From Nitrososphaeria archaeon (lineage in GTDB: Archaea > Thermoproteota > Nitrososphaeria > JACIWG01), in assembly GCA_029776065.1 (NCBI GenBank), contig JARVJP010000009.1:50911-114910 (forward strand): a DNA stretch of 64,000 bases, read 5' to 3'. The translations under genes and the position numbers were made by a program. The first letter of the stretch is position 1, and each line of letters starts with the position of its first letter. Below the pieces are notes generated by a model, which worked only from the letters and a program-made list of their open reading frames with translations, did no database searches and was not told where the DNA came from. Below, in pieces: positions 4,091 through 54,535 of the stretch.

Positions 4091-4142
4091 TCACACACCA
4101 CCACCTTATACACGGATCCAAATAAAAAGTTGGGGTTTAGCT

Positions 4143-4412: not shown

Positions 4413-4422
4413 ACTGTATCAC

Positions 4423-5143: not shown

Positions 5144-7994
<2,851 letters not shown>

Positions 7995-8005
7995 CTACAA
8001 CCCTC

Positions 8006-8602: not shown

Positions 8603-9613
8603 TTATTGAGCTGTTAGGTCGAGGAATATTCTCCCATCTCTTTCTGGTGAGGACAGGGATTCGATCGCGGTCTTCGTCTCTTCCAGTTTAAACTTCTTCC
8701 AAGTCTTCACTTGAAGCCACTTGTATTGGTTAAGCAGATCTGTGAGCTCACGTCTACTTCCACCAGTTGTGCCGATTATACTCAACTGCTGATTATAAAT
8801 TTTGAAGATTGGAAGTTCTACTGTAGAGCCTGTCAGAACACCATATGTGACTAGTTTGCCATTGGGTTTGAGTAGTTCTAAGCTGTTCAGGAACGTTTCA
8901 GCACCTAGTGGATCGATCACTACATCTGCCATCTTCCCGTTAGTTACCTCTTTGATCTTCTCCAACGCATGTTCCTTTTCAACAACCATGAAGGCTCCGA
9001 ACCTTTCAACCCATTTCTTTCTAGACACGCCTATCACCTTCGCACTGAAGACCAGTCTTGCTAGTTGGGTAGCAAACATCCCTGTGTTCCCAGAAGCACC
9101 TACAACCACCACATAGTTGTTCAAGCTCAGCGAGGCAGAGTTTAGAGCGTGATAGGCTGTCAGGGCAGATACAGGCATGCTCGCAGCAAGCTCCCAGTCC
9201 ATTCCCTCATCGATCTTGAACACGTTATCTGATGGTACTTTAACGTATTCTGAGAAACCTCCATTACACGTTACACCGATTACGCCACCGTTTCTACAGA
9301 GCATCTCCTTAAAGACCAGGCACATATCGCATGTCCCATCGAACAACCTAGGGTATACCACGACTTTGTTACCTCTCTGGACATTCGTCACATTAGGCCC
9401 AACGCTCTCCACTATCCCAGCGAATTCAGCACCTGGTATGTGGGGGAGAGGTTTGGCTTCACGGGATCCTGTTACAACGAAGTAGTCTATCGGGTTAACC
9501 CCAGCCATCATAACTTTGATAAGTACCTCGCCTTCCTTCACCTCTGGAATTGGTACGTCTTCTACTACTCTTAAATTCTCTAAACCTGGCTTATCAAAGA
9601 TAACGGCTTTCAT
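8603..9613 (-). CDS. zinc-type alcohol dehydrogenase / MDR-family oxidoreductase
   Basis: N-terminus MKAVIFDKPG, a PGAEFAGIVESVG motif, a structural-zinc Cys cluster (GTCDMCLVFKEMLC) and a GASGNTG Rossmann motif. ATG 9613 is preceded by GGAGGT. Confidence 0.85.
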   Translation of the reverse strand: MKAVIFDKPGLENLRVVEDVPIPEVKEGEVLIKVMMAGVNPIDYFVVTGSREAKPLPHIPGAEFAGIVESVGPNVTNVQRGNKVVVYPRLFDGTCDMCLVFKEMLCRNGGVIGVTCNGGFSEYVKVPSDNVFKIDEGMDWELAASMPVSALTAYHALNSASLSLNNYVVVVGASGNTGMFATQLARLVFSAKVIGVSRKKWVERFGAFMVVEKEHALEKIKEVTNGKMADVVIDPLGAETFLNSLELLKPNGKLVTYGVLTGSTVELPIFKIYNQQLSIIGTTGGSRRELTDLLNQYKWLQVKTWKKFKLEETKTAIESLSSPERDGRIFLDLTAQ

Positions 9614-9805
9614 AAGCCTTTCTACCTCCTTTTGATATTTATATTTATTCTGCAAGTTTATCTAAATTAAATATTTTATAAAGGCGAACTTCGATCTAGG
9701 TCAAGACTCCAACCAAGGTCTATGAAATCTTGACAAGAAAACCTTACCTTGGAAATAAGTTTTTAAGCAGTACTTTAAGTTGATAAACAGATTAAGTGTA
9801 ACCAA

Positions 9806-11371
9806 ATGAATTCCTTTGTGTCAGACGTCTTGGTCATCGGTGGAGGGATATCAGGATGCGTAGCTGCGTTACGGGCAGCTTCAAAAGGCTTAGAAGTCAC
9901 GATGTTGATGAAAGGCGAAGGGGGAGAGAAGTCCAACACTTACTACGCTCAAGGTGGCATAGTCTACAAGGGGAGGAAAGGAGACCCCTCTCTACTGGTT
10001 AAAGATATTTTAACGGCAGGAGATGGAGTGAGCTACCCTCCAGCTGTCAAGATTTTGGCTAACGAGGGCCCAAGGCTTGTCAAAGAAGTGTTAATAGAGG
10101 AAGTTGGTGTCCCATTTGACAGAAACGTTAGAGGGGAACTTGACCTAGCGAACGAGGCAGCACATTCCACCCGGAGAATCGTCCATGTTGCGGACATGAC
10201 AGGAAAAGCGATAGAGACAAAGTTGATGGATGTGGTCAATAAAAAAGGGAATATTAAAGTTTACACGCAAAGAGTCGCTATAGACCTACTAACCGAGGAA
10301 CACCATACAGACAACCCTTTAGCAGTATACAAAAACCCCACTTGCTTGGGTGCCTACGTCTTCAACGCCGAGAAAGGTGAGGTTGACGTATTTTTAGCGA
10401 AGGTAACAGTCCTCGCGACAGGTGGGCTTGGGCGAATATACCTTTATACAACAAACCCCAGGGAAGCAACAGGCGATGGGTTTGCTATGGCCTATAGAGC
10501 GGGAGCCCAGCTTATAAACATGGAGTACGTGCAGTTCCATCCTACAGCGTTTTGTTACGGGGAGGGAGAGTGCTTTCTAATTACGGAAGCAGTAAGAGGG
10601 GAGGGAGGGGTATTGAAGACCCCTGATGGACGAACCTTTATGGAGAAGTACCATGAACTTGGCTCACTCGCCCCAAGAGATGTTGTTGCAAGGGCAATTT
10701 ACGAGGAGATGTTTGAGAACAAGTATCCCCATGTGATGCTTGATCTGGCATCTTATATTGAGCCAGATAAGATAAAAAGTCGGTTCCCAACCGTATACCA
10801 AACCTGCTTGGAACACGGGATAGACGTAACAGAGAAACCGATTCCTGTGGTTCCAGCAGCCCACTTTGAGTGTGGTGGTGTAAAGGTAGACCTTTGGGGA
10901 AGAACCAACATAGACCGACTTTTCGCTATTGGAGAGGTGTCTTGTACGGGTGTTCATGGAGCGAATCGATTAGCGAGCACATCTATGTTAGAGGGACTTG
11001 TTTGGGCTGATAGAGCGGTGAGGAAGATGGTTGAGAGAAGACAGTATTACTTTAATTATAGAGTTCCCCATGTGAGGGAGTGGATTTACACAGGCATTGA
11101 ATCACCAGATCCTGCGCTAATTCAACAAGACATGAATGTTTTAAGGCATACGATGTGGAATTACGTAGGCTTGGTTAGGACGAGGGATAGGTTGAAACGA
11201 TCTATCGTCGACCTCGTTCAACTTAAAGAAGATATAGAAAACTTTTACCGTTATTCAATATTGAACAAAGACCTGATAGAGCTGAGAAACGCGATTCAAA
11301 CAGGTTTGATCATAGCGCAGTCAGCTTGGAAGAATAGACAGAGCAGGGGATGCCATTATAGGAGGAGTTGA
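9806..11371 (+). CDS. nadB: L-aspartate oxidase
   Basis: FAD motif [14 protein letters not shown], the YAQGG and [10 protein letters not shown] blocks, and a position first in the nadB-nadA-nadC string. Confidence 0.92.
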
Positions 11372-11375
11372 TAAC

Positions 11376-12275
11376 ATGATAGTTGAAGAGATAGAACAAC
11401 TTAAAAAGGAATTAAATGCTTTGATAATGGCTCATAACTATCAACTCCCAGAAGTCCAAGATGTCGCAGACTTTGTAGGAGACTCCCTAGAACTCGCAAC
11501 AAAAAGTAAGAGCACAGACGCAGACTACATCGTTCTAGCTGGGGTAGACTTCATGGCTGAAACAGCAGCCATCTTAAACCCAGGGAAAACAGTACTGATC
11601 CCAAGCCACCTTGCAAGCTGCGAGATGGCGAGATACCTAGATCCTAAGACAATAGAAGAATATAAAAAGGCATACCCAGAGTCTAAGATCGTTCTATACA
11701 TCAATTCTACAGCGGAATGCAAAGCATTAGCAGACTCAATATGCACGTCAGCAAACGCAGCCAAAGTCGTTAAAGCGATAGAATCTGATATAGTGCTCTT
11801 CGGACCAGATGCAAACCTAGCGAAATATGTTTCAAAAAATACTAAGAAGAAGGTGATACCACTACCCCCTAATGGCCACTGCTACGTACACACCTACTTT
11901 GACCCAGAAGAAGTACTCAAAATAAAGAGGAAGGATGGTGGAGAGGTGATGGCCCACCCGGAATGTGTAGAAGAGGTACAGGCTGTAGCAGATGTGGTAG
12001 CGAGTACAGGGGGAATGATCAAGCATGTCGCAACCTCTAACTCGAAAAAGTTCATCGTGGTCACCGAATGCGATATGAGCTATAGGTTGAAGAAGCTTTA
12101 CCCAGACAGAGAGTTCATCCCAGCTTGGGATAACGCGATCTGCCTCGGCATGAGGCAGATAACACTTGAAAAAATATGGGAGTCTCTTAAGTACAAAAGA
12201 TATAAAGTACAGGTTGATAACAAAATTGCCCAAAAAGCGAGAATGGCAGTTGAGAGGATGTTTGAATTAACATGA
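11376..12275 (+). CDS. nadA: quinolinate synthase
   Basis: 299 aa with the typical NadA N-terminus (ILAHNYQ-like: IMAHNYQLPEVQDVADFVGDS). It lies between nadB and nadC. Confidence 0.92.
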   Translation: MIVEEIEQLKKELNALIMAHNYQLPEVQDVADFVGDSLELATKSKSTDADYIVLAGVDFMAETAAILNPGKTVLIPSHLASCEMARYLDPKTIEEYKKAYPESKIVLYINSTAECKALADSICTSANAAKVVKAIESDIVLFGPDANLAKYVSKNTKKKVIPLPPNGHCYVHTYFDPEEVLKIKRKDGGEVMAHPECVEEVQAVADVVASTGGMIKHVATSNSKKFIVVTECDMSYRLKKLYPDREFIPAWDNAICLGMRQITLEKIWESLKYKRYKVQVDNKIAQKARMAVERMFELT

Positions 12276-13102
12276 TCACTACCTTTGATATGTTATTGGA
12301 TGAAGATGCCGTCTTCGGGGATATAACCAGTGAAACCATTATCCCAGAAGGACTAGACGCGGAATCTAAGGTGATAGCTAAAGAAGAAGGCATAGTCGCA
12401 GGATTAAACTACCTGAAAGAAAATGTGGAAAAGATCGGTCTAAAGGTTACACTTCTAAAGAGGGATGGGGATTCAGTGAAAAGAGGGGATTCAGTTGCAG
12501 TGATTGAAGGCAACGCGAGAAAATTACTTCTCATAGAGAGAGTCTTCCTAAATATCCTTGGTCGTATGAGCGGCATAGCAACGGCGACGAAAAGGCTTGT
12601 TGATAGAGTTAAACGCGTCAACCCTAATGTGCGGATAGCAGCTACTAGGAAGACGCTTCTTGGGAAACTCGATAAGATAGCGGTTACAATAGGAGGAGGC
12701 GACCCTCACCGTTGGAGCCTATCAGACCACATCTTGATAAAAGACAACCACATAGCCCTTGTCGGCTTAGAAGAAGCAATAAAGAAGGCTAGGAGGAGTT
12801 CGTTTGTCAGGAAGATTGAGGTCGAGGTCGAAAGGGTTGAGGACGCTTTTAAAGCAGTAGATCTAGGCGCTGACATAATCATGTTCGACAACTTTAAACC
12901 AAATCAGATATCTGAAGTGGTTAAGCTATTCGAAGCCAGAGGCTTAAGGGATAGAGTTCTCCTCGAAGCATCAGGTGGCATAAGCGAGGAGAACATATCA
13001 GATTACGCAGAAAGTGGTGTTGACGTCATATCCATAGGAGCTCTAACACATTCAACCAGAAGCCTTGACTTTTCAATCGATACAACCCCGAAAAGAAACT
13101 GA
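12272..13102 (+). CDS. nadC: nicotinate-nucleotide pyrophosphorylase (carboxylating)
   Basis: 276 aa with QPRTase blocks (ATRKT, HRWSLSDHILIKDNH, EASGGI). There is a 4-nt overlap with nadA. Confidence 0.9.
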   Translation: MITTFDMLLDEDAVFGDITSETIIPEGLDAESKVIAKEEGIVAGLNYLKENVEKIGLKVTLLKRDGDSVKRGDSVAVIEGNARKLLLIERVFLNILGRMSGIATATKRLVDRVKRVNPNVRIAATRKTLLGKLDKIAVTIGGGDPHRWSLSDHILIKDNHIALVGLEEAIKKARRSSFVRKIEVEVERVEDAFKAVDLGADIIMFDNFKPNQISEVVKLFEARGLRDRVLLEASGGISEENISDYAESGVDVISIGALTHSTRSLDFSIDTTPKRN

Positions 13103-13187
13103 TGCATGAAATAATGTAAGCTAGTTAGTGTAAAACAAGAGCATTAACAATTTGGCATAAGCTCTATTCAAAACAGTTATGTGGGCA

Positions 13188-13763
13188 TTAAAAACGTCGA
13201 TTGAACTTTGTAGGGAAAACGCCTTCTAAACAGTAGACAGTCAACTTGCCTTCATGACCTTCATTATTACAGGTTTCTTCCATTTTACAGTAGGGGCATA
13301 GCTTACTTCTTAAATCGTTTTTATCAGTATTGAGAGTCCCATATTTTTCATGTAACTCGTATAATAGTTTCAGATACTTGCCTTCAGCTATTCTAGGCAC
13401 TTTATCCTTATTCCTTAACCCAACCCATTCATATAATCCTTTATTACCTTTTGATAAATTACATCTTTTACAAACTTTAATTATGTTATCTGGGGTATCT
13501 GGCCCACCACAGGATCTTGGTAGGATATGTTCAACAGTCAAGTCTTTTTCAGACCCACAATAAACACATTCATTTTGTTTTTCATGTTCTTTTACCCATT
13601 CACGTACCGTACTAGACCATTTTATCTTACCATCTCTTAACATGACAAACCTATTCATTTGGAAGGCCCTTTGCTTAATACCAAATCCAGCTGACTTAGA
13701 AATTAGTTTGGCATACTGCCAAAATATTAGGTCCCTAACAGTTCTTACAACAGGAGGGGGCAT
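13188..13763 (-). CDS. HNH endonuclease-domain protein
   Basis: HNH core CVYCGSEKDLTVEHILPRSCGGPDTPDNIIKVCKRCNLSKG plus a C-terminal Cys cluster. The gene is much more AT-rich than its flanks. Confidence 0.8.
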   Translation of the reverse strand: MPPPVVRTVRDLIFWQYAKLISKSAGFGIKQRAFQMNRFVMLRDGKIKWSSTVREWVKEHEKQNECVYCGSEKDLTVEHILPRSCGGPDTPDNIIKVCKRCNLSKGNKGLYEWVGLRNKDKVPRIAEGKYLKLLYELHEKYGTLNTDKNDLRSKLCPYCKMEETCNNEGHEGKLTVYCLEGVFPTKFNRRF

Positions 13764-13930
13764 TTACATATATTTCCTGCATCAAACCTATTTAAGTAAT
13801 TGTCAAGTGATTCAAACATGGAACAAGTTTAGATTCCTTATAGGGTTCAATTGTTCATGGTGTTAACTGTTAAAACCACTCCATCTTATAAACAAATACT
13901 TTTTATGAATTCCACAGCATAGGGGAAAGC

Positions 13931-15205
13931 GTGGATGCAAGAAAACCGTCACTGAAAAGAACTCTTGGCATAGTCGACGCCACTTCCATAGGCCTTGGAG
14001 CGATCATAGGAGCAGGGATATTCGTTGTCCTAGGAGTCGCTGCTGGAGCCAGTGGCCCTGGAGTAGTTATTTCGGTTATTCTCGCAGCAGTAGTTTCATC
14101 TTTCACTGCCATGAGCTTCGCTTCTCTTGGTTCAACGATTCCAAAGGAGGGAGGAGCCTACGAGTATGCATATGAACTGCTTTCACCTTCTCTAGGATTT
14201 CTCACCGGATGGATGTGGATATTCGGCCAACTTGTCGGAGGGGCTGCGGTAAGCCTTGGATTAGCGGAATATTTCTCCCTTTTCATACCAATCCCCATAA
14301 AGTTTACAGCTGTTGCTGCATGCCTCTTATTTACCATTCTCAATACCTTTGGTGTAAAGGAGTCGAGCTTCGCAAACAACGTTATGGTCGCATTCAAGGT
14401 TGGGGTACTATGTGTCTTCATAGTTGTAGGGATCCCTCACATTCAAATTGCTAACTTTTCAACCATTTTTGCAACCAAATTTCCAGCGATCATAAACGGT
14501 GCTGCCCTGATATTCTTCGCATTCCTCGGCTATGGGAGGATAACTACACTCTCAGAAGAGGTTAAGAACCCGAGGAAGGTTATACCCCTCTCAATACTCC
14601 TTGCACTCGGGATATCAGCCCTACTCTACCTTCTGGTAAGCTTTACAGCTCTAGGAATTGCTAGCTCAGAAGAGCTTTCGAATTCAGGTTCCCCGCTTGC
14701 AGATGTGATGAAAAAGACTGGCAACGATCTAGCAGTAGCTCTTGTTTCCTTAGGGGGAGTCATCGCGACCATAAGTGTGCTTCTTACAACGCTTTTAGGT
14801 GTCTCAAGAGTGGTCTTCGCTATGTCCAGAAACCGGCAGATACCTGAGCGTGTGAACGCGATCCACCCAAAGTTCTGCACACCATACATCTCAATATTGC
14901 TATCAGGCATCCTTATGGCTTTGATCGCGTTGCTTGGCGATTTAAAGCAGGTGCTCTCCTTGGCGACTTTCACAATAATATCAACCCATGTGCTTGTGAA
15001 CTACTCCGCGCTGAAGATCAAAGGGGGGACGTTTATAGTACCCTTTTCCCCGATTCCTCAGATCCTTGGTATTGTAAGCTGCTCCGCTTTAGCGCTCTCA
15101 CTCCTTTTAGAAGTTTGGCTTGAGGCGTTAATGGTAGTATCTGTTGGTACAACCTTTTACCTAGCCTACAATAGATTCGCAGGAAATAAGAGAGAAGGCA
15201 CATGA
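13931..15205 (+). CDS. APC-family amino acid permease
   Basis: About 12 predicted TM segments, the N-terminal motif SIGLGAIIGAGIFV, and a GTG start. Confidence 0.85.
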   Translation: MDARKPSLKRTLGIVDATSIGLGAIIGAGIFVVLGVAAGASGPGVVISVILAAVVSSFTAMSFASLGSTIPKEGGAYEYAYELLSPSLGFLTGWMWIFGQLVGGAAVSLGLAEYFSLFIPIPIKFTAVAACLLFTILNTFGVKESSFANNVMVAFKVGVLCVFIVVGIPHIQIANFSTIFATKFPAIINGAALIFFAFLGYGRITTLSEEVKNPRKVIPLSILLALGISALLYLLVSFTALGIASSEELSNSGSPLADVMKKTGNDLAVALVSLGGVIATISVLLTTLLGVSRVVFAMSRNRQIPERVNAIHPKFCTPYISILLSGILMALIALLGDLKQVLSLATFTIISTHVLVNYSALKIKGGTFIVPFSPIPQILGIVSCSALALSLLLEVWLEALMVVSVGTTFYLAYNRFAGNKREGT

Positions 15206-15607
15206 GTTTTATACGACATTTATACTGCCAAGGACTATAAAATCATACGCGTGTAAATTAAGTTCGCAATTTAGAGACCTGCCGATTTATTCTATTTCCT
15301 GCTGAGCAGAATTCGATTTACAAGGTTGAAATTTGATTCTAAGATATTATCATTATGGTATAAGGTCTTTCTAAAAAGTTTAGATCATAAATAACTCACA
15401 TTAAAAGCCAATAGATTATGCCATACCCAAAACAAATTCCATCATAAACAGTTCTAGTTGAGCTAATTTAACAAATATAAGTGACATGATGTAGATGAAT
15501 ATAGAGTATGATTCTCTTAGAATAGCTTAGTGTCTAAAATGGTGTATTAAAAATACATGAGAGCGTTTATTTTTTGTAAAATGAACTTCTCTAGAAATTG
15601 GAACAAG

Positions 15608-16111
15608 TCACACATTCACGTTCTTAACCATATCAATAACTTCTTGCCAGTTTTCGACATCACTTCCATACTTAATGAATGATACATACTCAAAGGTGTC
15701 CCTGACTTCCTTAAGATGAATATCTCTATCATCTATATACAAGATTTCTTCAGGATAAATTCTAATTCCTTTTTTTCTAAGGTTACTAACTATCTTCTGT
15801 ATCATATGACTTTTATTCGGATGCGGTTCAATGGTTGGGAAGGCGAAATAATGAATAATAGAAAACATAGACAGGAGCTCTAAAACATTTTCTGGTTGGT
15901 TCCAACTCGCTATGGATAGGATTATACCATTATCCCTTGAGAACTCCAAGAATTCGCGGAACCTCCCGTTTAATTTGATCTTAGAGCCATACCTATCTTC
16001 GATCAAGTCCTTTGAAAGAAGTTTAAAAGGAGGAATGAGGCTCGAAGCATTATGATGCGACCAGATTGTACAGTCTGCATCAATGATTATTAGCTTTATC
16101 AACTCCTTCAA
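15608..16111 (-). CDS. HAD-superfamily phosphatase (MDP-1-like)
   Basis: DxDxT motif IIIDADCTIW near the N-terminus, a later YIDDRD motif, and a TTG start. Confidence 0.6.
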   Translation of the reverse strand: MKELIKLIIIDADCTIWSHHNASSLIPPFKLLSKDLIEDRYGSKIKLNGRFREFLEFSRDNGIILSIASWNQPENVLELLSMFSIIHYFAFPTIEPHPNKSHMIQKIVSNLRKKGIRIYPEEILYIDDRDIHLKEVRDTFEYVSFIKYGSDVENWQEVIDMVKNVNV

Positions 16112-29403: not shown

Positions 29404-31581
29404 TTATGGACTAGCATGGGAAGAACTAACTTGTTCCTTTATTTTCTTTGCAATAGAGGGCCCAAACTTGGATATTTTAGCTATATCGGACTCCTTTGCT
29501 TTTCTAATGTCGTCTAGAGTACGTAATTGGTTAGAATAAAGGAGACGGGCTCTAACTCGACCAACTCCTACAAGTTGAGTCAGTTCGAGTAGTTCTCTCT
29601 TAACGCCATACTTTATCCTTTCTTCAAGAGAGGATGAAACTGTCTGCAAGTTTTTTTCACCGAAGAGTAACGCTATCCTGGAGAAAGCGTGCGCCAACCA
29701 TTCTGCAGCTTCAACTTGGCGATACAAATCACCTGGTTCTATAGAGTACTTTTCATATATTTCATTTTCTGATTTTTCATTAATCCAATCTTTCAGTGCA
29801 AGAAAACTTCTACCAACATCATTAAATTTCGTTTCAATAGTGATCATTCCTAAGTGAGGCTTGTGTGAAGATTCGATATGATAGTTCACTATTTCATTAC
29901 ATGCCTCAATATCAACTTTTCTTAATGGAAACTGCGGTTGAAAGTCGTCAGTTAGAACCACTGATAATAAAACAAAGTCTTCGTCGTCTAATAACTTAAC
30001 TTTCTGAGCACGATAATAATCAATCATTGTTTTATAATGTATTCCTGTAGAAGTGGATATGTAAAGAAAAGATATGTTCTTACCAAACTCTGTAGCAATG
30101 AATCGCCCATACTCTTCTTCTATCAAACCATTTATCTTCAAGTAGGCTAAGTTTGACTTGATCTTCGAATAAACAAACTGTGGCCTTCTTTGAAAACCCA
30201 AAAACGTATTAGAAAAAAAATTATTTAATTCTTTTTCTGTAATCGCAGGGAAGCTGACGATCATTGCCAATATATGGTTTCTGAGAATTTGATTATCAAT
30301 TAACTTCGAATATAATGGTTCAGGGGAACCTTTGACATAACGCTCAAAAAAGGAGTCTGGGCCTTCAGATCTTAGTATTGATATGACGAATCCGATGTCG
30401 TCGTATTTCGGTCTACCAGCCCTTCCACAAAACTGTTTGTAATCTAAAATACTGATTTCTTCACTTTGTCCCCATCTACTATTAAATCGTGAAAGACTAT
30501 TGATGATTACAGTTCGAGCAGGAAGGTTGACGCCAGCAGCTAAGGTAGGTGTTGCGCAAAGTATTTTGATAAGTCCTTCTTTAAAGGAGTCCTCGATAAG
30601 CCTTCTATGTGATGGAGGAAGACCTGCATGGTGGAAAGCAGAGCCCTTTATAACGCAGTTAGCTAGCTTTTTCCCAACTTCAGTGAATTCATCGGATGAG
30701 ATTATTTTTTCATAAATTAATTGGAGTCTTTGACTTTCTTCTGAGCTTAAAAAGTTAGGTGTTATTATAGTGGCCTTCTCTGCTAATGATACAGAGTTTC
30801 TTCGATTTTCTGTGAATATTAGGACCTGCCCACCTTGTTTTAACATTGAGAATGCGCAGTCAATTGCTGGACCGTAATTGCTTTGGAATGTTGGTATTTT
30901 CTGGCCATTGAAGAAGATTATCTGCCCTGATGAATAACATCCTTCTATTAACTTTACAGGACGCCATTTACTATTTACAACTTCTGCTTTAAGCCAAGAC
31001 GATACATCGTAATAGTTTGATACAGTAGCACTTAAGGCTATAATCTGAACCTTTGAAGTTGAAGAGAGAAAGCGTGATACCAACATTTCTACAACTGGGC
31101 CTCTATCGCCTTCGTTTAGAAGGTGAATTTCGTCAAAAACTACAAGCCCTATCTTTTCAATCCAACTCGGGTCTAGCCTAAGCATTGAGTCGAACTTTTC
31201 GTTGGTTAAAACAAGAAGGTCTTTGTTCTTTAGAAAGTCGCTTCTCTGATCAAAGTCTCCTGTAGATATTGCTATTGTAGGTCTAGTGCCATCAGATTTG
31301 ACGAGATTAGTAAGAGGTTTGAATTCTTCATATTTTTCACTTGCCAAAGCTCTCAATGGTGTCAGGTAGATTACTCTTTTCCCTTCAAGTATTGCTTTGG
31401 CAGCACAGATCATGGCGATAAATGTCTTCCCACTAGCAGTTGGGGTGGCGATCAACATGTTCTTTCCTTCTAAAACGCCTTTTTTAATGGCATCTTCTTG
31501 GGGGGGATAGAGAGTCTGATATCCGAGACCATTTAGAAGGTTCTTAATCTGATCATGCAGAGGCAACTCATGAACATACAT
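29404..31581 (-). CDS. hel308: Hel308/Hjm (Ski2-like) DNA helicase
   Basis: ATPTASGKT, DEIH, SAT, HHAGL and QFCGRAGR motifs. 725 aa. Confidence 0.9.
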   Translation of the reverse strand: MYVHELPLHDQIKNLLNGLGYQTLYPPQEDAIKKGVLEGKNMLIATPTASGKTFIAMICAAKAILEGKRVIYLTPLRALASEKYEEFKPLTNLVKSDGTRPTIAISTGDFDQRSDFLKNKDLLVLTNEKFDSMLRLDPSWIEKIGLVVFDEIHLLNEGDRGPVVEMLVSRFLSSTSKVQIIALSATVSNYYDVSSWLKAEVVNSKWRPVKLIEGCYSSGQIIFFNGQKIPTFQSNYGPAIDCAFSMLKQGGQVLIFTENRRNSVSLAEKATIITPNFLSSEESQRLQLIYEKIISSDEFTEVGKKLANCVIKGSAFHHAGLPPSHRRLIEDSFKEGLIKILCATPTLAAGVNLPARTVIINSLSRFNSRWGQSEEISILDYKQFCGRAGRPKYDDIGFVISILRSEGPDSFFERYVKGSPEPLYSKLIDNQILRNHILAMIVSFPAITEKELNNFFSNTFLGFQRRPQFVYSKIKSNLAYLKINGLIEEEYGRFIATEFGKNISFLYISTSTGIHYKTMIDYYRAQKVKLLDDEDFVLLSVVLTDDFQPQFPLRKVDIEACNEIVNYHIESSHKPHLGMITIETKFNDVGRSFLALKDWINEKSENEIYEKYSIEPGDLYRQVEAAEWLAHAFSRIALLFGEKNLQTVSSSLEERIKYGVKRELLELTQLVGVGRVRARLLYSNQLRTLDDIRKAKESDIAKISKFGPSIAKKIKEQVSSSHASP

Positions 31582-31583
31582 AT

Positions 31584-34500
31584 CTATGCCCTTCTATAGT
31601 AACCAGGCTTTACCATATAGAATACTCCTTTTTGTTCAAGCTGTGAGAAATATATCTTGGCTTCAACTTCATTAAATTTTCCAGTTTCAACAATACTTTT
31701 TATCAAAGTGTTCAACTCGACGGGTTCATTTGTTGGGCCAGCAAGTTCTTTATATTTCTGAAACACAATTTCTAACTTACTCCTCTCACTCGCTGTAACG
31801 CCTGTTATAGTTCCCATGTCGATCTTCCCTGTCTTCTTATCAATTGCAACTGTGTAAAGCATATTTTTTGTTAAAGTAATGGCTTCTGCCGCATCTTCTT
31901 TTGTAACTTCATTTCTAAGTAAGAGTCTAGCTCGTGCTATAGCGAGTCTAATCAAAGATTCAAGCTGTCTTGGAGTTACAGGTATTGCTTGGCTTTCTAC
32001 CTGACTACGCATTTCAAGATAAAAATCGATGAGCATCCTTTCAGCTTCTGGAGTAATAACTGGTTGAATATTTTTGCAGTAGAGAAGGTATTTTCTTAGA
32101 AATTCTATATTTAGAGGGGGTTTTTGAACGAATGTTCGAGAACGACGTATAGCCATTATATGTGAAGCTATCTGTTCATCGACAGCTCTCTCTGGAACAT
32201 CCCGTATCACAAAGATTAAGTCAAATCGGGTCAGCAATGGTGAAGGCAGATTAATGTTCTCAGCCAAGTTCTTATAAGGATCATACTTTCCAAGTAAAGG
32301 GTTTGCAGCAGACAATATAGATGTTCTAGCGTTTAGAGTTACCACAACCCCACCCTTTGCAACGGAAACCGTTTGTTGCTCCATAGCTTCATGAAGGGCT
32401 TGTCGATCCGTGCTACTCATTTTATCAAATTCGTCTATTGCACAAATTCCTTGATCTGCCAAAACAACAGCACCAGCCTCGAGCATCAACATACCACTTT
32501 TTTCTCTAACCATGGCGGCGGTAAGACCTGCAGCAGTTGATCCTTTTCCTGATGTATAAAGACCTCTTGGAGCAAGTCTAGCGGAATACTTTAAAAGTTC
32601 GCTTTTTGCAGTATTGTGCGATATAATTCCATTTGCTATAAACCTATGCTTACCAGGTACCTCTATGTCGTATACATCAGCAATTTCTCCTGCCTTGAGA
32701 ACTTTGACAACTTTCTCAGTTCTTTGTTTACGAAAGCGTTGGAGCTTTGGAGAATGCGAAGCCAACTGAATAATTGCATCTTTCTTTTTTCTCGAAACAA
32801 AATCTATATAGCGACCAAATCTGGCAATGTCCTCTTTTTGGTTAATGATTAAAGTATTTCTCACAATCTTTGAATAGATAGCGAAGCGAAGCAGAAGAAT
32901 TTGAACATCCCGCAATAGCTCAATATTTTTAGCCTTAAAGCAGATTGCACCATTGCTTCTTCCTTTTTTCAATATTATTCCATTTGATTCGTATAACCAT
33001 TTAAGGAAAAAGGCTACAACTTTGTTACCCGATGAAAGGATAAGTTCGGGAACTCTTTTTTCCCTTAGGAATTTAAGATTATAATTTGCATCCCTGCTAT
33101 AGTAGTAAACATAATGCACAGGCGCCTTTCTGCGTCGCCCTATTTGTGTCTTAATATGAGATCTTAATCCAAACAAGTTTTCCACCATACAACAAAGTTT
33201 TTGAAGAATTTCCTTCTCTGACCTAGTAACAGTGAACCCAAATCGATAGCCATCACTACTTACCCATCCACTTCCTAACATATACCCCAAAAATGAGGCA
33301 AGCTCAGGAGTGAGCAGTTTTGGAAACTTTCCTTTGAACTTTGGCCCGAACCGGTGTCTTTCTAACGGCTTGAACGTTGTAGGTAAATATTTTGTTATGG
33401 TACAAGGGATGCTTGTTACGACTACAAGTCTATCTCCGACCTTGATTTCGTCAAGCCTCTTCCATTCTTGAACTATCTTTCCCCCATCAAATCTTTGTGT
33501 TAGAAGCGGATGATTGAAGGTGCCTTTGATGCTCTTCCCAGACTCTGTTATTACTTCCATTACTGGTTGGCTGCGATAAACATGGTAAGTTGTCGCTGTA
33601 GCCTTCTTATCTCTTTCTTCCCCGGTAAGGACCTGAACTGACAGCCGTTGTAGATGGTTTTCCCCTATCCGTCCTATCTTTACTATTGAACCATTTCCAA
33701 GAATAACTCTCTCATCAAAAACGAGGCAGCCTGGATCCCCTATTAAGAGTATGTTTATGTCGCCCCTGAGTGTAGTACCATCAGGGAGGGTTGTCTGAGG
33801 GGCACCAACAATTAAAAGCAATATGGCTTCCTTTAGAAGGTCATGACCATATATTGATGGAGAAAACGAATTTATGAGCATCTTTATCCAATCAGGACGT
33901 TTAGCTAATTCTTTGAATTTGATTTCATCAGATTTGTCTATAACAATATCTTCTGGAGCTTTACCTAGGACCTCCACATAATTTCCTTCAAGTATAGCGT
34001 TAAAGGTTCTTAAACGACTTCCCCGTGAACTATATTCTTCTTCTGCTTTCAGAGTGCCTGTAACCGTTACTCTATCACCAGGACGTGCCATATCAACTAT
34101 GTCGCCATAAAGTCTAATGTCTAATTGGCGTGGAAGTTGCCCAGGAGGTAATTCTTCAGGTAATTCTTGTATACGCAAAACTTGGAAGTTTATGTAGATG
34201 CTCTTTAGGCTATCAAAGGTAAAGAACTCTGTTTCATCGCATTCATTACATTTTTCTGGCTTTTTAATTATGCGTTCATCTTTTTGAACAACATAGTTTA
34301 CATGGCCTTTGGAACATTTCCAAGCCGCTTCAATTAGGAAAGGTTTGACTTCTGATACACGTACAACTACACCTGTGACAGCTACAAACTTAGATAGAAA
34401 GTTTACATCCAGTTTTCTAAGGGAACACTTCTCAGGGAGATTTCTTAACCTAACAAGAAAGTATTTTTCAACTTTCTTTGCATATTCAGGATCCTCTTCC

Positions 34501-34751
34501 TTAAGAAACTCTAAAGCAACCTTATTGAACATATCTAGGTACTTAATCGGGTCTTTAAGAGTTATAACGGCAAGGTCACTATTATATCTAGAAAGGTCTG
34601 TATAATCAATAATAATAGAGTTAGCGTTCCTTTGTATTACATTATTTAATTGTATTCTATATTTAGGTTGCTTAAAGTCATCAAGCCATCCTTTAATAAA
34701 GATGGAAAATAGGTCTTTAATACGAGAATCAGATGAAACTTCCAATCCCAA
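31584..34751 (-). CDS. mcm: MCM replicative helicase, interrupted by an intein
   Basis: Zn-finger region, the Walker A motif split as GDPG|intein|TAKS, Walker B CAIDEFDKM, and the arginine-finger region SRFDLIF-like (TRFDLIF). The extein is 683 aa. Confidence 0.95.
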   Translation of the reverse strand: MGLEVSSDSRIKDLFSIFIKGWLDDFKQPKYRIQLNNVIQRNANSIIIDYTDLSRYNSDLAVITLKDPIKYLDMFNKVALEFLKEEDPEYAKKVEKYFLVRLRNLPEKCSLRKLDVNFLSKFVAVTGVVVRVSEVKPFLIEAAWKCSKGHVNYVVQKDERIIKKPEKCNECDETEFFTFDSLKSIYINFQVLRIQELPEELPPGQLPRQLDIRLYGDIVDMARPGDRVTVTGTLKAEEEYSSRGSRLRTFNAILEGNYVEVLGKAPEDIVIDKSDEIKFKELAKRPDWIKMLINSFSPSIYGHDLLKEAILLLIVGAPQTTLPDGTTLRGDINILLIGDPGCLVFDERVILGNGSIVKIGRIGENHLQRLSVQVLTGEERDKKATATTYHVYRSQPVMEVITESGKSIKGTFNHPLLTQRFDGGKIVQEWKRLDEIKVGDRLVVVTSIPCTITKYLPTTFKPLERHRFGPKFKGKFPKLLTPELASFLGYMLGSGWVSSDGYRFGFTVTRSEKEILQKLCCMVENLFGLRSHIKTQIGRRRKAPVHYVYYYSRDANYNLKFLREKRVPELILSSGNKVVAFFLKWLYESNGIILKKGRSNGAICFKAKNIELLRDVQILLLRFAIYSKIVRNTLIINQKEDIARFGRYIDFVSRKKKDAIIQLASHSPKLQRFRKQRTEKVVKVLKAGEIADVYDIEVPGKHRFIANGIISHNTAKSELLKYSARLAPRGLYTSGKGSTAAGLTAAMVREKSGMLMLEAGAVVLADQGICAIDEFDKMSSTDRQALHEAMEQQTVSVAKGGVVVTLNARTSILSAANPLLGKYDPYKNLAENINLPSPLLTRFDLIFVIRDVPERAVDEQIASHIMAIRRSRTFVQKPPLNIEFLRKYLLYCKNIQPVITPEAERMLIDFYLEMRSQVESQAIPVTPRQLESLIRLAIARARLLLRNEVTKEDAAEAITLTKNMLYTVAIDKKTGKIDMGTITGVTASERSKLEIVFQKYKELAGPTNEPVELNTLIKSIVETGKFNEVEAKIYFSQLEQKGVFYMVKPGYYRRA
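32613..33728 (-). mobile_element. intein (372 aa) in the MCM P-loop, with a degenerate LAGLIDADG endonuclease domain
   Basis: Begins with Cys (TGC, 33728..33726) right after GDPG. It has block B TFNHP, ends ...IISHN (AAT, 32615..32613), and the +1 residue is Thr of TAKS. The two LAGLIDADG-like helices are FLGYMLGSGW and FLKWLYESNG. Confidence 0.9.
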
Positions 34752-48075: not shown

Positions 48076-48171
48076 TTTGGTCAGACTTACAAATTACTGA
48101 GTATATAATTTTTGATTTACTCTTAAACATTTTTTAGTTGTCATACCGTATCTTTAGAGTGGTAGGGGAAA

Positions 48172-50250
48172 ATGTCAGACGACTTCTTTAACTTAGAGAG
48201 TGTTTATTCGGCACTTGGTTCTAATGAACGCTTGACGATTTTAAGGGAGTTAAGTAAAAGTGGCTCACTTTCTTATACCGAACTTAAGAACAATTGTGGA
48301 TTTATTAAGAAAAGGGAATCTGGAAGGTTTGCTTACCATTTAAGACTTCTTTCCTCTGTAAATTTAATTTTGTTAAATAAGAATACAAGGAAGTACTCTT
48401 TAACACCCTTTGGAAGGAACGTTTTAACTGTCACTAACGAGTTAAAGGACGCAGCACTTCAGTCTTCTGGAAAAATTTATGTCAGAACTTCTAGGCACAA
48501 AATTGAGGAGTTTGACAGTAATAAGATATATCAATCCCTAATAAGAGAAGCAAATGTTCCTAGAGATTTGGCGTCAAAGATCACAGCTGAAGCCGAATCA
48601 AGAATAAGTAAGTTGGAGAACGTTCATTTGACGGCACCACTTCTTCGTGAATTAGTAAATTCGATTTTAGTCGAAAAAGGATTAGATGAATATAGGAACA
48701 AGCTTACTAGATTAGGGTTACCAGTAAAGGATGTTACAGATAAAATTTACCAAATAGGACATTCTGAAGGCGACGTGTTATCATTAAGACTTTCAGCTGC
48801 AGATGCTGTGTTTACAGATTATCTCTTACTTACACAAATCGGCTCAGAATCCTTAGATATGCATCTTTCAGGGGACATTAGCATTGTCAATACAGGATGT
48901 TGGGGGATAATGCCAGATAGCATTTTCTTTGACGCGCTCTCAGTTTCTTCTTTTGACATGAAGTTTGGGATAAAAAGCCCTTCAATACCAAGAATAAGGG
49001 CTGGGAAGGATTTTGATACTACTCTAGCTAACATGGGTTTGATAATTAAAAGGATGTTGGATGAAGTTTCTGATGAAATTACAATAGAAAATTTTGTCGA
49101 ACTTGTTACTTTAACCAAGAATGGTAAAGATTGTAAAGAGATAGTTGACAAATTATTCTATAACTTGTTCCTCGATTGCGTATCAAAAATTGATCCTCTC
49201 TCAAAGAAAGTTTTGAGTTTTCAAATAAACTTGAAGAATGACACTGAATTAGAGACCTTGGAGGAAGTACTTGGGGCTTATCTTTTGTATCTTAAAACTA
49301 GTTTAAGGCCTAAAATAAAACTTGTAGTCAATATTTTTGATAAGTCGAAGTTTAAAGAACAAATAAAACTTTTTTTGGAGTCCATAACCTCCGGTGGAAA
49401 TTTGATGATAGTCACAAAACCGGAAAGATCGATTTCCTACCAAGGAATAAAAAAAGGATTTAGCAAAGACGACATTCTACCAGTTGGGACGATAAATTTA
49501 CATTCTTTAGCAATAAACCTCCCACGCTTGTCTTATAGTGGTGCAGAGGAATCATATCTTAAGAGTTTACTGAAAATTAGATTACAAAAAGCTTCTGGGA
49601 CTATGAAGACAAGAAAAGACATCTTAATAAGCTTGATAGAGAGAAAATTACTCTACTTTTATGAATACAATAGTGATTTGTTTTCAAAAAAAGGTATAGA
49701 CATCGTTTTAAATATGGTAGGACTCGACGACCTAGCTAGATACTTAGTTCCCCAAGACTTAGAAGAACAGAATAAGATGTGGCTCAAAATGATGGAGTTT
49801 TCCCAAAAAATATTGGAAGAGGAGGGGGAGAGAATGGAATTGAAGATCGCTCCCTCTATCTATACAGATACCTCTGCAGAAAGATTCTACGAACTTGATA
49901 AAGAACTTTTTCCCAAAACCCCGCAAGGAAAAGCCATCATAACAGCAGGGAGATACACACAAATTCCGGTTTTAGACGCTAAGTCGATCAAAGATGAAAG
50001 TGTCATCAGAATGATACAAACTAGAATGGATATAACAAAGGGAGGATATCACACAGTTTTGGATTTATCAACAATGGATGATATAAATCAAATTCAGGAT
50101 ATTATTGAGCAAGCCATTCCAAAACTTGGTGCTTTTAAAATACGAAGAGACCTTATATCTTGTGGGACATGTAACTCTAAAAGCCCACCAGCACCCCGAT
50201 GTCCTAAATGTGGTTCCGCAGAAATATTAAGTCTACAAACAGATAACTAA
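48172..50250 (+). CDS. wHTH (ArsR-like) + ATP-cone + class III ribonucleotide reductase (NrdD)-like domain protein lacking the radical residues
   Basis: The N-terminus LTILRELSKSGSLSYTELKN is a wHTH. The ATP-cone is IYVRTSRHKIEEFDSNKIYQSLIREANVP.... NrdD-like blocks are MHLSGDISI and GTINLHSLAINLPRLSY. The C-terminal zinc ribbon is CGTC-x11-CPKCG, and the protein stops 11 aa after it. Confidence 0.65.
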   Translation: MSDDFFNLESVYSALGSNERLTILRELSKSGSLSYTELKNNCGFIKKRESGRFAYHLRLLSSVNLILLNKNTRKYSLTPFGRNVLTVTNELKDAALQSSGKIYVRTSRHKIEEFDSNKIYQSLIREANVPRDLASKITAEAESRISKLENVHLTAPLLRELVNSILVEKGLDEYRNKLTRLGLPVKDVTDKIYQIGHSEGDVLSLRLSAADAVFTDYLLLTQIGSESLDMHLSGDISIVNTGCWGIMPDSIFFDALSVSSFDMKFGIKSPSIPRIRAGKDFDTTLANMGLIIKRMLDEVSDEITIENFVELVTLTKNGKDCKEIVDKLFYNLFLDCVSKIDPLSKKVLSFQINLKNDTELETLEEVLGAYLLYLKTSLRPKIKLVVNIFDKSKFKEQIKLFLESITSGGNLMIVTKPERSISYQGIKKGFSKDDILPVGTINLHSLAINLPRLSYSGAEESYLKSLLKIRLQKASGTMKTRKDILISLIERKLLYFYEYNSDLFSKKGIDIVLNMVGLDDLARYLVPQDLEEQNKMWLKMMEFSQKILEEEGERMELKIAPSIYTDTSAERFYELDKELFPKTPQGKAIITAGRYTQIPVLDAKSIKDESVIRMIQTRMDITKGGYHTVLDLSTMDDINQIQDIIEQAIPKLGAFKIRRDLISCGTCNSKSPPAPRCPKCGSAEILSLQTDN

Positions 50251-50257
50251 ATAGAGT

Positions 50258-50563
50258 TTATTCGCTTGGGAGAACCTCTATTTTTCCAAAGCGACCAACG
50301 TTTAAACGTATTTCCCCCCTAAAGCTGTTAACGTAACCATTTTCTATTCGGACAATGTCATTAACTTCAACCTTATCAATTTGTTCATCCCAAAGCGTCA
50401 ACTTTATCTTTCCAGTTTCGTCTTCAAGTGTCAAATCAGCTACGCGAGCCTTCTGACCTGTCTTTAATGTGACTTCTCTAGGCTCAGATTTTTCTACTAT
50501 TCTCCCACTAACTTCAACCCTTCTCATGTTATCTCTCAATTGTGAGATGTTCAAATCATCCAC
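50258..50563 (-). CDS. single OB-fold nucleic-acid-binding protein (RPA/SSB-like)
   Basis: 101 aa. VSGRIVEKSEPREV..KARVADLTLEDETGKIKLTLWDEQ is a typical OB-fold pattern. Confidence 0.6.
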   Translation of the reverse strand: MDDLNISQLRDNMRRVEVSGRIVEKSEPREVTLKTGQKARVADLTLEDETGKIKLTLWDEQIDKVEVNDIVRIENGYVNSFRGEIRLNVGRFGKIEVLPSE

Positions 50564-52067: not shown

Positions 52068-53273
52068 ATGGCTGGTGAGATGTGGTCAGAAAAATATAGG
52101 AAAATAAGCTTTAATCAAATCATAGGCAATGAGGGTGCAAGAAAGGCTTTTTACGAGTGGATTAAAAATTGGAAAGAGGGGGATAAAGCAGTACTTTTAG
52201 TTGGTCAAGCAGGAACAGGGAAAAACACTACGATTTATGCTGCAGCACGAGAATTAGGATACCATGTTGTTGAATTAAATGCTAGTGATACAAGAACAAA
52301 GGAGAAACTAATAAAAAAACTCGGTTTTTCATTATATACTGTGGGTCTTTTTGATGAGAAAAGGTTGGTACTTTTCGATGAGGTTGATGGAATTTATGGA
52401 AGAGATGATTATGGTGGAACTGAATACATTAATGAACTTTTAGAGAAGCCTCCAGTTCCAATTGTATTAACAGCAAATGATGAAAATAATGAGAACGTTA
52501 TAAAGCTTGAGAAGAAAACGATTAAGATTAGCTTTCAGAAAGTTCCATTAAAAATGATCATAATGTATTTGAAGCATATTGTTGAACTAGAAGGAAAAAA
52601 AGTAGATTTGAAGCTTTTAAACGAAATCGCGAAGAAAAGCGATGGTGACGTTAGAGCTGCGATTAACCTTCTTCAAAGCATGGTAGATGCTCCAAAGACG
52701 ATTGAGAGAATGGATCTTTTAAAGGACGCTATTATTTCTAAGCAAGACGCATTAATGGCGTTATTCAACGAAGAAAATCCTGAAACAGCGTATGAAAAAT
52801 TTTCGAAGATTGACTTTAATTCTAGAGATAAATTATACCTTCTATTTTACTCTATTCTGGCTTCTGGCTTAGATAAAAGTAAAAGAAAAGCAGCCTTAAG
52901 AGTTATATCTGAAATAGATATCTTTGAGACAAGGATAGAAAGTACTCAAGAATGGCGAATGTTGAAATGGTTTGATAGAATAATTGTCAATAAATTCTAT
53001 AACCAAAGCTTTAGACAAGGGATTAAGTATTATGAGGAGGAACCGTTATGGGAATTGAAAATTAAATATTGGACTGAATTACGATTATTCAAATCAATCA
53101 AAGAGAGAGTAAACCAACGATATCATACCTCAAACAGTGACTTTGTTCTTTATTACATACCTTGCTTAGTAAACCTAGCAAGAAAGGATAAAGAAAAAAC
53201 ATTTCGTTACCTACAATATCTAGGATTTAACGACAACTTTATCTCTTTAATTGATAAGAGGGTAAAAACATGA
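52068..53273 (+). CDS. rfcL: replication factor C large subunit
   Basis: MWSEKYR..., P-loop GQAGTGKNT, Walker B LFDEVDG, and sensor region GDVRAAIN. 401 aa. Confidence 0.8.
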   Translation: MAGEMWSEKYRKISFNQIIGNEGARKAFYEWIKNWKEGDKAVLLVGQAGTGKNTTIYAAARELGYHVVELNASDTRTKEKLIKKLGFSLYTVGLFDEKRLVLFDEVDGIYGRDDYGGTEYINELLEKPPVPIVLTANDENNENVIKLEKKTIKISFQKVPLKMIIMYLKHIVELEGKKVDLKLLNEIAKKSDGDVRAAINLLQSMVDAPKTIERMDLLKDAIISKQDALMALFNEENPETAYEKFSKIDFNSRDKLYLLFYSILASGLDKSKRKAALRVISEIDIFETRIESTQEWRMLKWFDRIIVNKFYNQSFRQGIKYYEEEPLWELKIKYWTELRLFKSIKERVNQRYHTSNSDFVLYYIPCLVNLARKDKEKTFRYLQYLGFNDNFISLIDKRVKT

Positions 53274-53620: not shown

Positions 53621-54535
53621 TCAGCTAGTCCAAAAAGGTTTCCTTAAAAGAACAGATCGAAGAAAAGCGTTGCGTAACCCATCATAGTCTTTATTATCTA
53701 AATATTTGCTTACATCGACTTCGTTACCTGAGACCATCAAACACGGCTTTAGAAGGCCATCATATGTCACCCTAAGTCGATTACAGTGATAACAAAATTC
53801 AGTATTTTCTATAGGATGTACGACTTCAACTTTAGTAGAATCCAGTTGAAAGATCTTTCTTTTGTGCATATCATCTCTAAATTGAATTGACTTAGAAATT
53901 TTAGAAAGTTTCTCTTCAACGCCATCAATTGGTTTATGAAATTCTGAATAAAGATTTTTAGATATTCTTACCGGCTCGAGTTCAATTATTTGCAAAATGC
54001 AACCTGACTTGGCTGCATATTCTATCATAGAGTCAACCTCATCATCATTTATACCTTTCAAAAGAACCATGTTCAACTTGACAGGGTTAAGTCCACTCTT
54101 AACGGCTTCATTTATTCCTTCGAGGACTCTGTTGACTTCGCCTCCAGTTATTTTCTCGTACTTTTCACTGTCAAGGGATGGAAGGCTTACGTTGACCCTT
54201 TTTAATCCTGCATCTTTAAGTTGTTTGCTATACTCTTTTAAAAATTGTCCATTTGTAACCATAGAAACTTCGGTAAAGGATTTGATAGAGAAGATAGATT
54301 TGACAATTTCTATTATGTCTTTTCGATAAAGTGGTTCACCACCTGTAAGTTTAACAGTTTTAACACCATAAGACGCTGCTAACTTTGAAATCATAATTAT
54401 CCCATTAATGCTAATCTCTTTATTTTCCTTATTCAACGACCCCTCAGAGTGGCAGTAGAAACATTTTAAATTACATTTAGATGTCACAGATATCCTTAAG
54501 TTATATACTGGGCGGTTGTAAAGATCCAGAAGCAT
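53621..54535 (-). CDS. moaA: GTP 3',8-cyclase (radical SAM)
   Basis: CNLKCFYCH radical-SAM motif, LTGGEPL, and a C-terminal Cys cluster (CYHCNRLRVT..KPC). Confidence 0.9.
   Translation of the reverse strand: MLLDLYNRPVYNLRISVTSKCNLKCFYCHSEGSLNKENKEISINGIIMISKLAASYGVKTVKLTGGEPLYRKDIIEIVKSIFSIKSFTEVSMVTNGQFLKEYSKQLKDAGLKRVNVSLPSLDSEKYEKITGGEVNRVLEGINEAVKSGLNPVKLNMVLLKGINDDEVDSMIEYAAKSGCILQIIELEPVRISKNLYSEFHKPIDGVEEKLSKISKSIQFRDDMHKRKIFQLDSTKVEVVHPIENTEFCYHCNRLRVTYDGLLKPCLMVSGNEVDVSKYLDNKDYDGLRNAFLRSVLLRKPFWTS

Follow-up and report, generated by a model that had tools for sequence, protein, structure and literature searches.

What is the role of a protein that has the fold of a class III ribonucleotide reductase (RNR), lacks its radical residues and carries an ArsR-like winged helix at its N-terminal end? 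The question is raised by a gene at 48172..50250 on the + strand of a 64,000-nucleotide stretch of DNA (the window; contig JARVJP010000009.1) from an archaeon of the class Nitrososphaeria. The gene is complete and encodes 692 residues, as judged from its open reading frame (ORF), Pfam matches, homologs and predicted structure. Its product is best read as a paralog of the class III enzyme NrdD that has lost catalysis and has probably become a nucleotide-sensing, NrdR-like transcription factor for RNR, a reading to which a probability of about 0.6 is given. The original prediction had guessed at a transcription factor from the domain architecture. That guess now has the support of three observations on the family: its genes lie upstream of RNR genes, the promoters of the paralog and of the RNR gene have helically phased site arrays in common, and the N-terminal domains are more constrained than the reductase barrel.

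The control of RNR sets the pools of deoxynucleoside triphosphates (dNTPs) and, through them, the fidelity of replication. Bacteria use NrdR. To our knowledge, archaea are mostly without NrdR, and the control of RNR transcription in archaea is largely unknown.

Domain architecture

The protein has four parts, proposed originally from the letters of the sequence and now established by Pfam, profile comparison and AlphaFold with Foldseek taken together. The first is an ArsR/SmtB-like winged helix-turn-helix (wHTH) domain at residues 10-92 (48199..48447; all features of the gene are on the + strand), assigned from Pfam, Foldseek and its invariant columns. The winged-helix family DUF7347 matches residues 10-86 with an E value of 1.5e-9, the NCBIfam model HTH_metalloreg matches at E 2.3e-4, which is below the model cutoff, and homologs of the protein give Pfam HTH_5 and HTH_20 matches. 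In a separate model of residues 1-196, Foldseek superimposes this domain on CzrA, CadC, ArsR, NolR and AspA with target-normalised TM scores of 0.65-0.78. The motif G-[RK]-F-A-Y-H-L (residues 51-57) is invariant and lies in the putative recognition helix; the invariant residues of the domain sit in this helix, away from the known metal sites of ArsR/SmtB proteins.

The second part is a divergent ATP-cone at residues 101-176 (48472..48699), recognised by Pfam, the model, Foldseek and conservation. PF03477 matches residues 102-174 with 29.8 bits, the cutoff being 25.8. In the model the domain consists of a beta-hairpin (strands 103-105 and 111-113) followed by helices between residues 116 and 175, and the model of residues 1-196 matches the ATP-cones of NrdR and of RNRs with Foldseek E values of 3e-3 to 5e-2. 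A linker with the pattern Y-R-x-K-L-T-R-L-G-L-P-V-x-D-V (residues 174-190, 48691..48741), delimited by its identity from clade to clade, leads from the cone into the third part.

This third part, at residues 191-655 (48742..50136), is an NrdD-type barrel without the catalytic residues, identified by its profile match to bacteriophage T4 NrdD and by Foldseek. The Pfam family NRDD matches residues 437-684 with an E value of 1.4e-13, covering only positions 273-531 of the 562 in the profile, and the NrdD equivalog model TIGR02487 of NCBIfam gives 47.4 bits, under its cutoff of 326.35. As a single-sequence query against the PDB, the whole protein returns chance matches only. A family profile built from 11 sequences matches T4 NrdD (1h78) with an E value of 6e-26 across residues 211-689, and also matches the NrdD proteins of S. 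thermophilus, T. maritima and P. copri. For the AlphaFold model of the protein (pLDDT 81, pTM 0.73), the 36 best Foldseek matches are class III RNRs, with E values down to 4e-20 and target-normalised TM scores reaching 0.68. Much lower in the ranking come class I R1 proteins and PflD. In the profile alignment, the blocks HLSGDISI, INLPR and CGTC...CPKCG, which had been singled out as NrdD-like, do align with AHESGIIHVHD, LNLPRIA and the zinc-site cysteines of T4 NrdD. The last of these blocks belongs to the fourth part, a four-cysteine zinc ribbon of the NrdD type (50161..50214) that is followed by a tail of 11 residues. Its cysteines C664, C667, C677 and C680 are invariant in the family.

Loss of the radical chemistry

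In T4 NrdD, the finger loop reads PMGCRSF and includes Cys290. It pairs with a degenerate loop, SYQGIKK, at residues 422-428 of the window protein (49435..49455), which places Ile426 at the Cys290 position. The original prediction was right that the thiyl-radical cysteine is absent; the segment it had paired with PMGCRSF, KPERSIS, lies a few residues off the true partner. The T4 segment FTNCCLVDL pairs with MPDSIFFDAL, so that Ser250, within the MPDSIFFD segment at 48910..48933, occupies the position of Cys79. The chain terminates 11 residues past CPKCG, as had been seen, and has neither a glycyl-radical domain nor an R-V-x-G-[YF] motif. The profile and Foldseek comparisons proposed at that time as a check on NrdD, ATP-cone and HTH families give a significant similarity to NrdD (E 6e-26 and 4e-20) and recover neither the cysteine nor the glycyl-radical motif.

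The same positions were read in a census of 117 full-length homologs, made up of 69 members of the Nitrososphaeria clades and 48 members of a Bathyarchaeia type. The 69 comprise the clade of the window protein and a clade of ammonia-oxidising archaea (AOA), Nitrososphaerales and Conexivisphaerales. The loss of both radical residues, claimed at first for the window protein, extends to all 69, with no radical residue kept in any of them. The Cys290 position is Ile, Leu or Val in 66 and Met, Tyr or Phe in three, Cys occurring in none (0/69), and the tail after the zinc ribbon is 6-14 residues long. Intermediate stages are seen in the Bathyarchaeia-type members. A cysteine survives at the Cys290 position in 31 of the 48, and a vestigial glycyl-radical tail of 41 residues is present, mostly reading SRVSAK with the Gly replaced by Ala; the Gly is kept in about four. 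The Cys79 position is never Cys in the census, being Ser, Asn, Thr, Ala, Val or Glu, with Glu or Gln in the Bathyarchaeia type.

Decay of the finger loop and of the tail takes many different forms among about 150 further proteins, each representing a cluster at 50% identity. For these diverse sequences the finger loop was read from an NLPR anchor, since a column census from a MAFFT alignment was misaligned there. Such varied decay is to be expected if selection on a dead active site has been relaxed.

The absence of a nearby NrdG activase, also noted from the outset, holds for all ORFs of the window. The only ORF with a CxxxCxxC radical-SAM motif (53621..54535, - strand) was considered as a candidate and rejected; it is MoaA, with a Mob_synth_C domain. 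The window protein is thus, with near certainty, a catalytically dead paralog of NrdD.

Distribution and conservation

With one genome taken per species, relatives of the window protein are found in at least 592 species genomes, nearly all of them Nitrososphaeria, and the range of the family is Nitrososphaeria and Bathyarchaeia. Full-length homologs range from 87% down to 28% identity. The genera include Nitrosopumilus, Nitrosarchaeum, Nitrosotenuis, Nitrosopelagicus and Nitrososphaera, and hence obligately aerobic ammonia oxidisers. When a profile of the N-terminal module was searched exhaustively, 207 clusters at 50% identity were found with E values of 1e-30 or less. They include a clade of shorter proteins of 565-660 residues, exemplified by Candidatus Geocrenenecus arthurdayi, in which the wHTH and the cone are kept but similarity to NRDD is fading.

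Homologs carry a variety of annotations: "anaerobic ribonucleoside-triphosphate reductase", "ATP cone domain-containing protein", "helix-turn-helix domain-containing protein" and "ArsR family regulator". Since the radical residues are missing, the first of these, which is found in many databases, is a misannotation for the many homologs from aerobic ammonia oxidisers to which it has been given (P0004, P0014, P0053 and others). It wrongly implies that these aerobic archaea have class III RNR capacity and an anaerobic supply of dNTPs.

Conservation is distributed very unevenly along the chain. Between the three major clades, the linker is nearly invariant (75-88% identity), and the ATP-cone, at 59-61%, is the most conserved globular domain, followed by the wHTH at 35-46% and the barrel at 13-32%. 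There are 72 positions conserved at 95% or more, and 49 of them fall within the first 190 residues. The N-terminal module of wHTH, cone and linker is therefore the most constrained part of the protein. This pattern is inverted relative to that of an enzyme, because a working RNR would show the opposite. Within the barrel, the conserved elements are NLPR, R571/D576, Y595 and GG624-625, all of which align with conserved NrdD blocks.

Origin from an intact NrdD

The source of the family can be seen in three Bathyarchaeia loci, where a second NRDD gene lies downstream of the paralog on the same strand, directly in L081 and after a glutaredoxin-like gene in L082 and L083. These neighbours are intact NrdDs. 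Those in L081 and L082 score 487-536 bits over the full Pfam NRDD profile. In all three, the finger loop reads QCC, the Cys79 position is occupied by Cys, and both a zinc ribbon and a WSR[IV]TGYYQ motif are present. The neighbours also have the same divergent cone as the dead paralog, together with a TRLGLP.YDV linker. In the L081 neighbour the linker reads YTRLGLPLYDV. The Bathyarchaeia paralog P0074 and the intact NrdD beside it, which has the QCC loop and reads WSRITGYYQ, are 34% identical and collinear across 679 residues (E 7e-112). Over the cone and linker, the identity of this catalytic neighbour to the window protein is 41%.

Because of the shared cone and linker and the collinear identity with the neighbouring enzyme, the family is identified by sequence comparison as a paralog of an archaeal NrdD that bore an ATP-cone, the winged helix having been gained. 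The tandem order of the two genes in Bathyarchaeia points to a tandem duplication.

Linkage to RNR genes

The gene context was examined in 80 Nitrososphaeria loci, each representing a species, in which ORFs of at least 80 residues were called and clustered. In 73 of the 80, the next gene on the same strand encodes a class I/II-type RNR catalytic subunit (Ribonuc_red_lgC), usually after a gap of 150-230 bp. In a Conexivisphaerales locus, the RNR gene also adjoins the paralog and is convergent with it. As described above, the neighbour in Bathyarchaeia is an intact NrdD, with the paralog upstream in 3/3 loci. The paralog thus keeps its place beside the RNR gene even as the class of that RNR changes between NrdD, in the anaerobic Bathyarchaeia, and the class I/II type, in Nitrososphaeria.

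The partner RNR occurs in two forms. In soil Nitrososphaerales and in the loci L003, L010 and L043, it consists of Ribonuc_red_lgN, lgC and TSCPD and has no cone; in Nitrosopumilaceae-like loci and in L005 it consists of an ATP-cone, lgN and lgC. A model in which the paralog supplies a cone in trans to a downstream RNR that is always without one was rejected, because the RNRs of AOA and of the L005 type have a strong cone.

Other genes recur in this neighbourhood. The gene pyrB, for aspartate carbamoyltransferase (OTCace), is found beside the paralog/RNR pair in Nitrososphaeria, where it comes after the RNR gene (L003-L080), and in Bathyarchaeia, and also in L087, which suggests an old nucleotide-metabolism neighbourhood. 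RFC genes lie near the paralog/NrdD pair of the Bathyarchaeia locus L081.

Sites common to the paralog and RNR promoters

In 35 Nitrosopumilaceae-like loci, with expectations taken from the other intergenic DNA of the same loci, GATCA is the top enriched pentamer in the 200 bp upstream of the paralog (118 observed, 14 expected; present in 32 of the 35 loci). It is also the top pentamer in the spacer before the RNR gene, with 106 observed and 17 expected. The density of GATC is 19.9 per kb upstream of the paralog and 12.1 in the RNR spacer, against 3.6 in other intergenic DNA and 4.0 in coding DNA. The distances from one site to the next have maxima at 10-11 and 20-21 bp. In 586 kb there are 54 arrays with at least three GATC sites, and 33-35 of these are within the regions upstream of the paralog and in the RNR spacer.

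In the 43 Nitrososphaeria loci outside this group, GTCAA is the word that is enriched, with 6.3 per kb upstream of the paralog, 9.8 in the spacer and 2.3 in other intergenic DNA. For TGTCAA, the enrichment in the spacer is 11-fold. Palindromes of the form TTGAC-N5-GTCAA(-N6-GTTCAC) follow the stop codon of the paralog in these loci, and GTCAA-N6-TTGAC palindromes are found upstream of the paralog in L005 and L006. By our reading, the TTGAC sites flank the paralog's own TATA-like box and lie upstream of the box in the RNR promoter. The nrdD promoters of Bathyarchaeia have GTGTCAATT in two of three loci and a GATC triplet in one of three.

The promoter of the paralog and that of the RNR gene therefore carry the same clade-specific, helically phased site arrays, made of either GATC or GTCAA. 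These arrays are candidate operators of the paralog protein.

Two further elements are found in these regions. An element of about 40 nucleotides, TATACAGAATTTTATACAATTCTTA...TTTTAAGTA, lies directly before nrdD and is common to L081:9773-10170, L082:10313-10658 and L083:8223-8463. It differs from the GTCAA and GATC sites and may belong to the promoter or act as an operator. In the Nitrosopumilaceae-like loci L036-L080, some 60-200 bp upstream of the paralog, there is a short ORF of fewer than 80 residues that encodes a zinc ribbon; it ends in ...KCPSCGQKLSTSEFSLDVQEN, immediately ahead of the GATC array.

Proposed function and its weak points

In the proposed mechanism, the NrdD-like barrel and the zinc ribbon would serve as a dimerisation scaffold, as they do in NrdD, and would present two winged helices to the DNA. 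Binding of ATP or dATP to the cone would, by way of the invariant linker, change how the protein oligomerises or where its winged helices lie. The resulting change in occupancy at the protein's own promoter and at the RNR promoter would tune transcription of both genes to the dNTP/ATP status of the cell. In the clade of the window protein, the factor would act in trans on an RNR gene elsewhere in the genome.

Several observations weigh against this mechanism. The binding of DNA and of nucleotides by the paralog is itself a prediction. Used by itself against the PDB, the ATP-cone finds no meaningful match either as a sequence or as a profile, and an hhalign comparison of its profile with E. coli NrdR is insignificant, so that the nucleotide-contact residues of the cone are not mappable. 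The domain is divergent, the canonical K-R of the hairpin being R-T in the window protein, and Pfam is unable to separate functional from non-functional ATP-cones (PMC4390871). Nucleotide binding through the cone is therefore the weakest link of the proposed mechanism.

The candidate operators have difficulties of their own. The enriched word changes from GATC to GTCAA between clades even though the recognition helix is invariant, and the motif counts come from related genomes, which are not independent samples. In the window, the promoter region of the paralog, defined by a tRNA call and an alignment of four upstream regions, is a segment of 96 bp on the + strand (48076..48171) that also serves a divergent tRNA-Pro gene. 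It includes a block, GTATATAATTnTTGATTT...AACATTTTTTAGTTGTC, that is kept in a relative with 69% identity. Footprinting with the four upstream regions reveals no recognisable operator, and the palindromes TTGAC-N5-GTCAA and GTCAA-N6-TTGAC each have a single match in the window, with one mismatch, which is below chance expectation.

The linkage to RNR is also incomplete. No RNR gene adjoins the paralog in the clade of the window protein, which consists of the window, L001, L002 and L085. Searches by tblastn with two NrdJ sequences find no RNR gene in the 64-kb window, L001 or L002, and Pfam scans find none among the large ORFs of the window. The synteny common to members of this clade is formed by an SSB-like OB protein, EndA, UbiA and an RFC-like ATPase. 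Likewise, no RNR gene adjoins the paralog in Geocrenenecus (L086) or in L087. The flanking genes of these two loci (NAC/PUA/GTPase, or pyrBI/V-ATPase) equal those of loci in which an RNR gene intervenes, so that the RNR gene appears to have moved away. A gene that is kept without its RNR neighbour fits a factor acting in trans.

An extension of the regulator hypothesis is possible, but at present doubtful. Because NLPR, R571/D576, Y595 and the GG motif are conserved, the barrel may also keep the effector pockets of NrdD, the substrate pockets or both. The protein would then read the ATP/dATP ratio with its cone and the balance of dNTPs with its barrel, and phased oligomers on the arrays would couple dNTP synthesis to the cell cycle. 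If so, a fossil RNR would serve as the receptor that controls the living RNR in most of the sampled ammonia-oxidising archaea and in Bathyarchaeia.

Alternative roles

Of the other roles that may be considered, the one that survives best, itself rather unlikely, is that of a DNA-binding protein with a different regulon or function, such as control of replication or cell-cycle genes or organisation of the nucleoid by spreading on the site arrays. The linkage to nrd genes would then be historical, particularly for the clade of the window protein, whose neighbours are the SSB-like, RFC-like, EndA and UbiA genes and not an RNR. The resemblance of the wHTH to AspA, which spreads along DNA, is in keeping with such a role, as is the number of GATC sites in AOA promoters, which reaches nine. 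Against it, GATC arrays are concentrated at the paralog's own promoter and at nrd promoters and are rare elsewhere in the 586 kb, and the linkage to RNR persists across the switch of class.

It is less probable that the protein is a non-catalytic regulatory subunit that binds the active RNR and confers control by ATP and dATP, the winged helix being used for protein contacts or being secondary. The tight linkage with the RNR gene would suit such a subunit, as would the RNRs of soil Nitrososphaerales, L003, L010 and L043, which lack a cone of their own. About half of the partner RNRs do have their own cone, however, and so do the Bathyarchaeia NrdDs. The change of class would have required the subunit to switch partners between unrelated surfaces, those of NrdD and of a class I/II-type barrel. 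The invariance of the wHTH recognition helix, and the retention of the paralog in several lineages after the RNR gene had moved off, are also difficult to reconcile with a subunit.

It is very improbable that the protein has remained catalytic, whether as a class III RNR with unconventional radical chemistry or as a nucleotide-converting enzyme that uses the barrel pocket. The conserved NLPR, R571/D576, Y595 and GG624-625, in register with the NrdD blocks, are what speaks for it. Set against them are the missing finger-loop Cys and glycyl-radical domain, the lack of an activase in the window, the fast evolution of the barrel (13-32% identity) and the different decay of the catalytic positions in each lineage. 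The family is moreover present in obligate aerobes, and an oxygen-sensitive enzyme would be of no use to obligately aerobic ammonia oxidisers. A decaying pseudogene of an ancestral nrdD, which would account for the lost catalytic residues, is refuted by the conservation pattern and deserves almost no credence: the ORF is intact and full-length in no fewer than 592 species genomes and in 207 clusters at 50% identity, and the N-terminal domains are strongly constrained.

Comparison with known systems

NrdR is described as rare in archaea (PMC9110341), and the original statement that archaea lack it was too strong. Like NrdR, the window family couples an ATP-cone to a DNA-binding domain and has its gene associated with RNR genes. 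Phased, repeated sites occur in the RNR promoters and in the regulator's own promoter in both cases, those of the window family being candidates seen in relatives of the window protein. The cones of NrdR are also the best structural matches of the N-terminal model. In other respects the two differ. The DNA-binding element of NrdR is an N-terminal zinc ribbon; in the window family it would be an ArsR-like winged helix, the only zinc ribbon being at the C-terminal end. The window family adds a dead RNR barrel of 500 residues, and its cone, which descends from that of an archaeal NrdD, does not resemble the NrdR cone significantly in sequence. NrdR boxes differ from the candidate sites. Because of the different DNA-binding domain and the independent origin, the window family is not a member of the NrdR family but an independent invention, and would be a functional analogue.

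With NrdD (T4, T. maritima, P. copri and S. thermophilus; PF13597, TIGR02487), the family has in common a homologous barrel, the zinc ribbon, the N-terminal ATP-cone and the linker. It differs in the absence of the thiyl Cys, the second Cys, the glycyl-radical domain and the activase, and in the presence of the extra wHTH. The fold of residues 10-92 is that of the ArsR/SmtB repressors CzrA, CadC, ArsR and NolR and of archaeal AspA. The ArsR/SmtB proteins, however, are stand-alone dimers of about 100 residues per chain, whereas the domain in the window family is fused to a body that is derived from RNR and predicted to sense nucleotides.

BirA and PutA are bifunctional enzyme-regulators, in which an enzyme fold is reused as a module for ligand sensing or oligomerisation. 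Unlike them, the window family has lost catalysis fully, and the parent enzyme is the very one whose gene appears to be regulated. No description of a fusion of wHTH, ATP-cone and NrdD was found in the full-text literature searched.

If the proposed function is correct, the family would fill a gap in RNR regulation in Nitrososphaeria, which include globally abundant ammonia oxidisers, and in Bathyarchaeia. It would also show clearly how the paralog of an enzyme can come to regulate the pathway of its parent. Intermediate stages can still be seen in the Gly to Ala replacement of the tail, in the Cys kept by some members and in the fading barrel of others.

Other features of the window

Just downstream of the paralog lie the SSB-like OB-fold gene (50258-50563, - strand) and the gene for the RFC-like AAA+ ATPase (52068-53273). 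Inside the paralog gene, an antisense ORF of 110 residues (48819-49151, - strand) recurs in 15 loci; it is most likely spurious, its recurrence being due to the overlap with conserved coding sequence. Further upstream, the MCM helicase gene (31584-34751, - strand) is interrupted by an intein, with Intein_splicing and LAGLIDADG_3 matches inside the P-loop domain, and is adjoined by a Hel308-like helicase gene (29404-31581, - strand). The G+C content is 43-46% in positions 1-16000 and 32-40% beyond. The G+C-rich 16 kb encodes 2-oxoacid:ferredoxin oxidoreductase subunits, a nadB-nadA-nadC operon, a zinc alcohol dehydrogenase and an amino-acid permease, and may be a compositionally distinct island.

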